Below are positions 190 through 1,430 of a stretch of 64,000 bases of DNA, piece after piece (positions within the stretch are counted from its first letter, which is position 1; every line of letters starts with the position of its first letter). The position numbers and the translations under genes are program-made. This DNA is from Alphaproteobacteria bacterium (GTDB lineage: Bacteria > Pseudomonadota > Alphaproteobacteria > Bin95), in assembly GCA_964291285.2 (NCBI GenBank), contig OZ219785.1, positions 640,001-704,000 on the forward strand, written 5' to 3'. Below the pieces are notes generated by a model. It did not search any database, was not told where the DNA came from, and saw nothing but the letters and a program-made list of their open reading frames with translations.

Positions 190-206
190 AGCGACTGTGT
201 TGTCGG

Positions 207-1139
207 TCAAGCTGTTTTCCACGGGGTTCGGTCTCTGAGGATAGCGTTGAGGATTGTGAGGAGCTTTCGTGTGACGGCGGTGAGGGCAGCCTTTTTGGTT
301 TTTCCCTCCGCGATCAGGTGGCGATAGAAGCGTTTGAGGGTTGGGTTATGCCTGGAGGCGGTGAGGGCAGCCATGTAGAGGGTTGCGCGGACGTTGGCGC
401 GTCCTCCCCATATGGTTCTCTTTCCGCGCATGGTTCCGCTGTCGCGGTTGAAGGGCGCGACGCCGACGAGCGCGGCGATGCGCCTTCGGCTGAGGGTTCC
501 GAGTTCGGGGAGATCGGCGATCAGGGTTCGTGCGGTGGCGTCACCGACCCCGGGAACGCTTTTGAGGAGGTCCTCGGCCTGGCGCCATGCGGGGGATTTG
601 CGGATCGCATCGCCGAGCTCGGTTTCGAGGTCGGAGAGTTCGCGTTGCAGGGTGGCGAGCACGCGGTCGACGCTGCGGATCGTGCGACGGCTTGTGAGGC
701 GCCTCCTGCGGTTTCTCTCCGCGGTCATCATCGCGACGATCTGGCGCCGCCGGGCGACCAGCTCGGCGAGCGCGCGGGCCTGCTCGTCAGGCACCGGACG
801 GGGCTCGGGATGGACCGCCTCGGCGAACTGTGCGATCGCCGCCGCATCGAGGGCGTCGGTCTTGGCGAGCCGGCCGGTGGCGCGGGCGAAGTCCCGGATC
901 TGGCGCGGGTTGACCACCGCCAATGGCAGGCCCGCCGCGCAGAGCGCCGCCGCGACCGTGACCTCGAAGCCGCCCGTCGCCTCCAGCACCACGAGGGCAA
1001 CCTCCAGCCCGCCCAGGCGCGCCGACAACTCTTCCAGGCCTTTGCCGTCGCGCGCGACGGCAAAGGCCTCCCCGGACGGGCGCAGATGCACGTCCAGACG
1101 ATCCTTCGCCACGTCGATGCCAACGAATATCCGTTCCAT
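207..1139 (-). CDS. IS110 DEDD recombinase/transposase (310 aa)
   Basis: GIDVAK, VLEATGG and KTDALDA RuvC-like motifs; SVPGVG...DSG C-terminal domain. Confidence 0.95.
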
Positions 1140-1140
1140 G

Positions 1141-1300
1141 TCCCGTCCTTGCAAATGCGGTCTCACACTGCGGACCAAGCGACTGTTCGGGTTCAAAGGA
1201 ACAGCGGACGGGGAACCATGCTCTCCCGCGGTCTTCATAACCTGGGTGCTAGCGGTCTCCCGTCCGCTCCCGCTGTTGCGACTATAGCTGCAACAACGAT
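1141..1300 (-). ncRNA. Predicted bridge RNA (target-binding and donor-binding loops)
   Basis: Minus strand carries ACAGTCGCTT (donor-left match, 1177-1186), GCAAG (donor-right, 1148-1152) and CGGGAGAG (complement of target-right, 1221-1228), the last inside a GCGGACGGG/CCCGTCCGC stem; ends approximate. Confidence 0.8.
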
Positions 1301-1430
1301 CCGGAGAGATACAAGGTGTGTCCGCACCTCGCGCGCGCAATCAGGCGCGCGAGCCGCGCCGGCGCCGACACGCGCCCGCGCGGGATACGCGCGGAAAAGG
1401 GACCCGCTCCCGTCCGCAGAAGGAGGAACG

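Follow-up and report, generated by a model that had tools for sequence, protein, structure and literature searches.

Thirteen genomic copies of an IS110-group insertion sequence with a predicted IS621-like bridge RNA in an alphaproteobacterium

The RNA-guided mechanism of the IS110 insertion sequences was first described in 2024, and the closest described counterparts of the element considered here are IS621 of Escherichia coli (177-nt bridge RNA; PDB 8wt6), ISPpu10 and ISPpu9 of Pseudomonas putida and the IS1111 group of the IS4321/IS5075 type. Our subject is a 1,124-bp IS110-group insertion sequence that occupies 1315..190 on the minus strand of a 64,000-nucleotide stretch of DNA (the "window", whose positions are used throughout) from an alphaproteobacterial genome (assembly GCA_964291285.2, contig OZ219785.1, positions 640,001 to 704,000). 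Its left end is predicted to encode a bridge RNA, and we consider it very probable that the element is intact, has been active recently and works like IS621. Among the elements collected in ISfinder, bridge RNAs have been predicted for 85.7% of the IS110 group and 93.0% of the IS1111 group (PMC11208160). The same report describes a variable first loop and a conserved second loop for the family and a guide polarity in which left guides correspond to the top strand and right guides to its complement; handshake guides, as well as a composite active site formed by residues D11, E60, D102, D105 and S241 of IS621, are described in PMC11208158, and a promoter at the junction of the joined IS621 ends is reported in both (PMC11208158, PMC11208160).

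With IS621 the window element shares the architecture and catalytic residues of the recombinase, a left end whose predicted RNA begins with a 5' hairpin and has a target loop that varies and a donor loop that is conserved, the CT core, a donor sequence (ACAGTCG-CT-TGTAT) that is identical at 12 of 14 positions to the IS621 donor (PMC13396178), the guide polarity described in PMC11208160, candidate handshake nucleotides and a preference for repeated extragenic elements. It differs in its target, which is (G)CAC-CT-CTCC(C/T)G here and of the ATCAGG-CCT-AC type in IS621 (PMC11208160), in the length of its right target guide (8 nt versus 4, or 7 when extended) and left target guide (5 contiguous positions versus 9), and in the second core-binding base of the latter (C versus U). 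The two recombinases are only distantly similar (E 1.5e-38), the host is a high-GC alphaproteobacterium, and RNA guidance is predicted here from sequence. Since the mechanism is already established for IS621, no concept is changed by these comparisons, and the differences between the two elements are differences of degree.

ISPpu10 and ISPpu9 are, like the window element, multi-copy and associated with one position of a repeated intergenic palindromic element; here, 5 of the 13 copies reside in a repeat with 88 members. In contrast to what is described for the Pseudomonas elements, with which the comparison is by published description only, over half of our copies are found outside the repeat, and a target stem-loop is therefore not required here. 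The IS1111 group has in common with the window element a DEDD recombinase and an RNA-guided choice of target, but the right end that carries its seekRNA is long and has subterminal inverted repeats, whereas here the right end comprises only 17 nt and it is the left end that contains the predicted RNA. The nearest kin are IS110 elements of Reyranella, Azospirillum, Methylobacterium, Microvirga, Bosea and metagenome-assembled genomes (loci L055-L134), whose recombinases are 61-93% identical to ours and which have left ends of similar length (166-190 nt), the same left-end terminus (CT-TGTAT) and the same donor loop. They differ from the window element, and from each other, in target-loop sequences that are specific to each lineage and that match the respective flanks; the nearest relative (93%, L055/L056), for example, is inserted at targets that read ...GGCC-CT-CCCCCG.

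The boundaries of the window element were read directly from the junction sequences, and its layout is as follows.

1316..1375, minus strand: left flank, the left arm of a repetitive extragenic palindrome (REP)-like intergenic repeat, of which the last 7 nt (1322-1316, GACACAC) are the left target (LT)
1314..1315, minus strand: CT core of the left junction, CT in 12/12 left junctions
1307..1313, minus strand: left-end terminus TGTATCT, the right donor (RD); in 73/80 relatives CT-TG(T/C)AT keeps a constant distance to the guide anchor
207..1139, minus strand: recombinase gene, 310 aa, with DEDD RuvC-like and Tnp (Transposase_20) domains, from Pfam, NCBIfam and the IS621 alignment
192..198, minus strand: right-end terminus ACAGTCG, the left donor (LD), from the junction sequences
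190..191, minus strand: CT core of the right junction, CT in 13/13 right junctions
140..189, minus strand: right flank; CTCCCG (189-184) is the right target (RT), and beyond it lies the other arm of the REP-like repeat (right arm), which has a terminator-like hairpin

On the minus strand the left junction reads GACACAC-CT-TGTATCT (CT at 1315-1314) and the right junction ACAGTCG-CT-CTCCCG (CT at 191-190). An exact-anchor search of the genome detected the same break bases at 12 left and 13 right junctions elsewhere, with differing flanks, and empty sites carry a single CT; the CT-bounded minus-strand element that a preliminary description of this DNA had proposed is thus exact in its junctions and coordinates. 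There are no terminal inverted repeats, and the common core dinucleotide replaces a target duplication. The non-coding left end (1313-1140) is 174 nt long and contains the predicted RNA gene, and the right end extends 17 nt past the stop codon. Every feature of the IS110 group that could be tested is present, the junction promoter (see below) being a candidate, and the IS621 bridge-RNA layout ascribed to the element in the preliminary description is supported.

The genome, which was assembled into 5 contigs (6.13 Mb, 68% G+C), contains 13 copies of the element, whose recombinases are 100% identical and free of stop codons. Nine uninterrupted elements are 99-100% identical in DNA sequence. The recombinase matches the Pfam families PF01548 (DEDD_Tnp_IS110, residues 6-147, E 3.4e-24) and PF02371 (Transposase_20, residues 190-273, E 4.2e-20), and scores 222.9 bits, against a cut-off of 140, with the NCBIfam equivalog NF033542, "IS110 family RNA-guided transposase". 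Its residues 4-307 can be aligned by phmmer to the IS621 chain 8wt6_A, with the E value given above, and the ISCro4 protein (9t56_A) aligns as well. In the alignment to 8wt6_A, residues D9, E53, D95, D98 and S234-G235 stand opposite D11, E60, D102, D105 and S241-G242 of IS621 (the numbering of this chain is that of the native protein +2), and all catalytic residues are therefore conserved.

The flanks of the copies yield, by direct reading, the target consensus (G)CAC-CT-CTCC(C/T)(G). On the right, CT followed by CTCC is present in all 13 copies; a lack of CTCTCCC right flanks at other insertions had been named in the preliminary description as a refutation. The next position is C in 9 copies, while the 4 copies with T could still form a G.T pair with the guide, and the one after it is G in 10. 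Among the 12 left flanks, 8 have G and 3 have A at position 4, positions 5 and 6 are C and A in 11 each, and position 7 is C in all 12; LT positions 5-7 read CAC in 10/12. The complete motif CAC-CT-CTCC(C/T)G is the site of 9 of the 12 complete copies. Genome-wide, there are 620 unoccupied CTCTCC(C/T)G sites, and only 12 of these are preceded by CAC. Occupancy is thus 9/21 for perfect sites and 0/608 for sites that carry only the right half (Fisher p 7e-15), and we conclude that the left half of the target matters despite the shortness of the guide that would read it.

The copy in the window is flanked by the REP-like repeat, for which a BLAST search with the left arm retrieved 88 members genome-wide. 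Eight members carry the exact site; 5 of these hold an insertion and are the only occupied members of the family, and 3 are empty. No insertion is present in the 24 members with a GT core (GCAC-GT-CTCCCG) or in the 6 reading GCAC-CC-CTCCCG; no trace of an insertion at a GT core was found, all 12 left junctions reading CT. At the insertion point of 81 of the 83 unoccupied members (those that align to the 12-nt target motif with <=4 mismatches), the dinucleotide is GT in 27, TT in 22, CT in 22 and CC in 6. Seven or eight copies of the element lie outside the repeat family, at the same 11-12-nt site.

For the analysis of the left end we fetched 80 loci with related recombinases (identities as given above), mostly from Alphaproteobacteria. 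Seven of these were dropped because the left boundary could not be located or fell at a contig end (L083, L088, L095, L106, L118, L121 and L122), and in the remaining 73 the motif CT-TG(T/C)AT lies 166-190 nt upstream of a conserved CAAG(G/A). Together with the window copy these relatives provide 74 left ends, and the 59 distinct ones were aligned with MAFFT (alignment A1). The features of the predicted bridge RNA are listed below in 5' to 3' order, with each guide under the stem-loop to which it belongs.

1271..1298, minus strand: 5' hairpin P1, CGUUGUUGC / GCAACAGCG, from single-sequence folds; left out of the pair count
1203..1268, minus strand: target-binding stem-loop, with an outer stem (1268-1259/1212-1203), a second stem (1257-1254/1217-1214) and an inner hairpin (1242-1230)
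1244..1252, minus strand: left target guide CUAGCAC-CC, which would read LT positions 4-7 and the core C; its column block co-varies with the left flanks
1221..1228, minus strand: right target guide CGGGAGAG, 8/8 complement of CT plus CTCCCG; co-varies with the right flank
1142..1191, minus strand: donor-binding stem-loop, with an outer stem CCCG/CGGG (1191-1188/1145-1142) and an inner stem (1177-1173/1162-1158)
1178..1186, minus strand: left donor guide ACAGUCG-CU, 9/9 identity to the right-end terminus plus core
1146..1153, minus strand: right donor guide UGCAAG (1153-1148) with candidate handshake GA; would pair with CTTGTA (6 pairs including one G.T) and overlaps the ribosome-binding site AAGGA

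The consensus structure obtained directly from the alignment with RNAalifold and by pair counting comprises 25 pairs in five helices, and 14 of the 25 show compensatory changes on both sides. Paired cells make up 96.7% of 1,475, as compared with 84.3% in shuffled alignments and 32-52% when the partners are slid by 1-3 columns; none of 500 shuffles reached the observed paired fraction or any other of the structure measures. Helix 1 alone accounts for 14 pairs, 12 of them with both-side changes (95.8% of cells paired), and helices 3 and 4, which form the donor stem-loop, have 97.0% and 97.5% of their cells paired and one compensatory pair each. Hairpin P1 is kept at its place in the relatives, but is misaligned by MAFFT and hence was not counted. 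Across the 59 left ends most of the variation between the two internal loops falls in the first, the second being nearly invariant. None of the four guides is paired in the consensus; the concern of the preliminary description that they might fall in paired stems is not borne out, since they occupy the internal loops of a structure that is itself supported by covariation.

The non-coding end holds ACAGTCGCTT (1186-1177), GCAAG (1152-1148), CGGGAGAG (1228-1221) and CTAGCACCC (1252-1244), and GCGGACGGG and CCCGTCCGC flank the middle two of these. These are the four guide segments of the preliminary description, and they are present as it gave them: a donor match of 10/10 if the next U, the counterpart of the left end's first base, is included, a GCAAG that pairs with one wobble, and an 8/8 right-target complement in its stem context. 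When the mononucleotides of the non-coding end were shuffled 20,000 times, a 9-nt donor match arose in 9 shuffles, an 8-nt right-target complement in 130 and the two together in one. The right target guide, which had been called long, exceeds the clade-typical 7 nt by one. The left target guide reads 5 contiguous positions, and the earlier count of 4 matches plus one G.T wobble in the window copy is correct. Its description as weak holds in so far as it is short, but not in the sense of negligible, as CAC is present in 10/12 copies and none of the 608 sites without it is used. Likewise, the element does have a target loop of its own, although "naturally reprogrammed" would overstate the case, for each lineage has its own loop and this is the normal state of the family.

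The nucleotides 3' of the two core-binding AG pairs are, by their position, candidates for handshake guides. The C at 1220, which follows the right target guide, can pair with the G at LD position 7 in 65/65 site/guide pairs (see below), and for the G that follows the right donor guide, pairing with LT position 7 is possible in 64/65, including one A-T change (L082). Within the aligned left ends, CAAG is invariant (59/59) and is followed by G in >=90%. The ribosome-binding site of the recombinase, AAGGA, is built from the right donor guide and its handshake nucleotides (window 1148-1152; 1139), and the outer stem of the donor stem-loop stops 2 nt ahead of the recombinase ATG. Because of this overlap and of the closeness of the stem to the ATG, translation of the recombinase could also be controlled by folding of the RNA or by binding of the recombinase.

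The covariation between guides and flanks was assessed by a direct comparison of guide alignment columns with the flanks at the inferred junctions of each relative. The right end of each relative was located with its own left-donor-guide 7-mer plus CT, which was found without mismatch in 70 of 74 rows, with 1 mismatch in 2 and with 3 in 2. The 69 rows that had <=1 mismatch and a complete right flank were kept, and these represent 65 distinct site/guide pairs and 44 guide classes. Over these pairs, the RT positions beyond the core match the complement of the guide at 4.94/6, as compared with 2.60 +/- 0.22 after shuffling of the guide classes, and the LT positions match at 4.17/7 as compared with 2.66 +/- 0.19; none of 2,000 shuffles reached either observed value. 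This outcome, too, favours the interpretation given in the preliminary description. Three Reyranella sublineages, with CTCAGGA, CTCAGCA and CTCAGGG, each have their own guide, and individual relatives reach 9/9 left matches (L098 and L066) or 11/11 matches (L074). At the donor, guide and right-end terminus also vary in step, as ACAGTCG, ACGGTCG and ACAGCCG.

From these observations we infer transcription of the left end, a circular intermediate and RNA-guided catalysis, and a course of events can be proposed along the lines of IS621. The bridge RNA encoded by the 174-nt left end would consist of a 5' hairpin followed by two stem-loops; the internal loop of the first would carry the target guides and that of the second the donor guides. 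Four molecules of the 310-aa DEDD/Ser recombinase, assembled as a tetramer with this RNA, might then synapse the joined right end-left end donor of the excised circle with the target, and strand exchange at the common CT core would give insertion without any duplication beyond the core. The joining of the ends would also set a TTGAC box 17 bp upstream of TATCTC, from which both the RNA and the recombinase might be transcribed mainly while the element is in its circular form. The two boxes of this putative promoter are:

205..210, minus strand: TTGACC, candidate -35 box, which overlaps the stop codon and would come to stand 17 bp upstream of TATCTC through the joining of the ends, not before
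1306..1311, minus strand: TATCTC, putative -10 box of the junction promoter, from the sequence

All 52 distinct relatives have TTGAC (50 cases) or TTGAT (2) at one constant distance from the core, and its position is kept even in relatives whose stop codon lies 26-164 nt away. This conserved placement would fit a junction promoter of the IS621 type. In the integrated state, no sigma-70-like site was found upstream of the RNA.

A number of observations weigh against an IS621-like mode of action. Only 3 of the 6 positions of TATCTC agree with TATAAT, and the final T is not among them, which would make for a weak junction promoter. The minimum-energy fold of the single sequence pairs 6 guide nucleotides with each other (parts of both target guides); when the guides are forced to be single-stranded, the window sequence refolds into the same stems as the consensus, and the energy of the single-sequence fold (-71.2 kcal/mol, z-score -2.7) deserves little weight alone. 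On the minus strand, Rfam 15 gave no family at E<=1, and no curated model confirms the membership. The relatives share a phylogeny, so that the shuffle controls overstate their independence, and the register of the left guide was allowed to vary by one nt among them (the best register is 0 in 28 classes, -1 in 9 and +1 in 7). In the window copy, the left guide matches only 3/7 non-core positions (plus the wobble), and its last C lies against the A opposite the core T, a mismatch rather than a wobble; core mismatches were disfavoured in the IS621 screens (PMC11208160). Partial left matches are the rule in the clade, with a mean of 4.6/7, and a core-binding CC instead of CU occurs in 8/44 guide classes, the window copy included. 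With its 3/7 the window copy belongs to the lowest quarter of the 44 classes, and by this alignment its weak left guide is at the low end of the clade range but inside it.

The same data can be examined with other explanations in mind. The copies might be inactive relics, in which the guide matches merely record past activity; in favour of this, 4/13 copies have an interrupted or truncated bridge-RNA gene, and no promoter-like site was found in the integrated state. We nevertheless think this unlikely. All 13 recombinases are intact and identical and retain every catalytic residue, the near identity of the nine uninterrupted elements argues for a very recent spread, and weak expression from integrated copies is the normal state described for IS621 (PMC13626964). 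The element is probably active, as judged from its sequence. A different kind of alternative would leave the element its transposition and take away its guides: the target might be chosen by the recombinase and/or by a DNA hairpin of the REP-like repeat, with the left end serving chiefly as a 5' untranslated region that regulates translation. This proposal draws on the presence of 5/13 copies in a single REP-like family in which imperfect inverted repeats flank the insertion point, on the overlap of the right donor guide with the ribosome-binding site, and on ISPpu10, for which a target stem-loop is described as an extra determinant of specificity (bioRxiv 10.64898/2026.03.19.712850). Against it stand the seven or eight copies that use the same site outside the family and the covariation of guide columns with flanks across relatives with unrelated targets, which a rule based on protein or structure only does not predict; we regard it as very improbable. 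Target structure may contribute in addition to pairing.

It could further be asked whether a guide of the seekRNA type resides in the right end, as in the IS1111 group, which has the recombinase superfamily in common with our element. That group is characterized by a long guide-encoding right end with 7-17 bp subterminal inverted repeats, a trait that the window element lacks: only 17 nt follow its stop codon, the structured and co-varying RNA is in the 174-nt left end, and a long left end with a short right end is the pattern of the IS110 group (PMC11208160). We attach almost no probability to a guide in the right end, and an IS110-group element guided by an RNA from its left end remains the explanation that we favour.

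Within that explanation there is room for a more specific and rather tentative idea, which we hold to be possible but would not expect to prevail, namely that the bridge RNA of this clade is asymmetric. The 8-nt right guide would read most of the target, the left guide would read 4-5 nt beside the core, the core T would be unpaired, and specificity would be completed by the repeat and hairpin context of the target. If this were true, and if the slip in register were not an artefact of alignment, the element would represent a natural "half-match-leaning" bridge RNA, and pairing of the left guide with the core might be dispensable in some bridge recombinases.

The value of the locus lies in the clean natural data set that it offers, with 13 identical copies and a full census of used and unused sites in one genome. 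The census shows the natural specificity that arises from two target guides and a CT core (9/21 perfect sites, 0/608 right-half sites and 0/24 GT-core members of the repeat). The 59 aligned relatives with their matched flanks are a ready basis for a covariance model of an alphaproteobacterial clade that goes undetected by Rfam 15, and high-GC orthologues with longer right guides might be of interest in the choice of new bridge recombinases.

The bridge-RNA genes of the four damaged copies were interrupted or truncated by other insertion sequences (loci in this genome, G000, include L135, C3:1142108-1143558; L136, C3:1703455-1706995; and L137, C2:1145259-1147405). Other mobile elements have hit the gene three times independently within 30 bp, in the equivalent of window 1269-1239, the 5' half of the target loop. 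The first is of the Mutator/IS256 type with a 9-bp duplication, the second is 3.5 kb long, carries Transposase_29 and IS1595-type genes and produced a 5-bp duplication, and the third is a DDE_Tnp_1 element that duplicated CTAG, a sequence located inside the left target guide. In the fourth damaged copy (C2:1295741) only the last 143 nt of this third element remain and the left end is lost. The clustering of these insertions may reflect a hot spot or chance. A megablast comparison of the element with a plasmid collection gave no match.

The search of window 1-2500 against Rfam 15 (E<=1) returned only a tRNA and a sub-threshold match to sX15 (RF02234) at 1167-1281 (+), on the strand opposite to the recombinase and bridge RNA, with 28-30 bits as compared with a gathering threshold of 55. 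A similar antisense match of ~30 bits recurs in 2/15 relatives (L055, 1356-1507 (-), and L062, 1367-1507 (-)). We treated it as chance, because the type locus of sX15, on the Xanthomonas plasmid pXCV183, adjoins a transposase gene of the IS3 family and gave no sign of a link to IS110. Just upstream of the IS110 copies of two relatives there are an ALIL pseudoknot (L108, 883-999 (-), 113.5 bits) and a group II intron domain (L098, 1233-1307 (+), 37.5 bits, below gathering), which suggests that mobile elements cluster at these two sites.

The REP-like repeat starts with a GC hairpin, TCGCGCGC-CTGATT-GCGCGCGA, after which come another hairpin, which is imperfect, and a tail that resembles a terminator; it matches no Rfam family. 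Empty members are present within the window near 51343 and 54128. Two contig joints across the element (189>1327 and 190>1328, from the contigs of 4 sequencing runs), each with 14 other letters in between, were considered and set aside, as they derive from other members of the repeat and not from an empty locus. These contigs showed no circle junction, which assembled contigs could not reveal, and no RNA run containing the element was found among the sequencing runs. Between the repeat with its insertion sequence and a tRNA-Gly(CCC) gene (1739-1813), eight close copies of CATGACA(T/C) occur at 1564-1649 (+) in two clusters, with a spacing of ~10 nt within a cluster. The contigs of related runs show several alternative joints from 1365 to 1558-1622, and this region is therefore variable or repeated.

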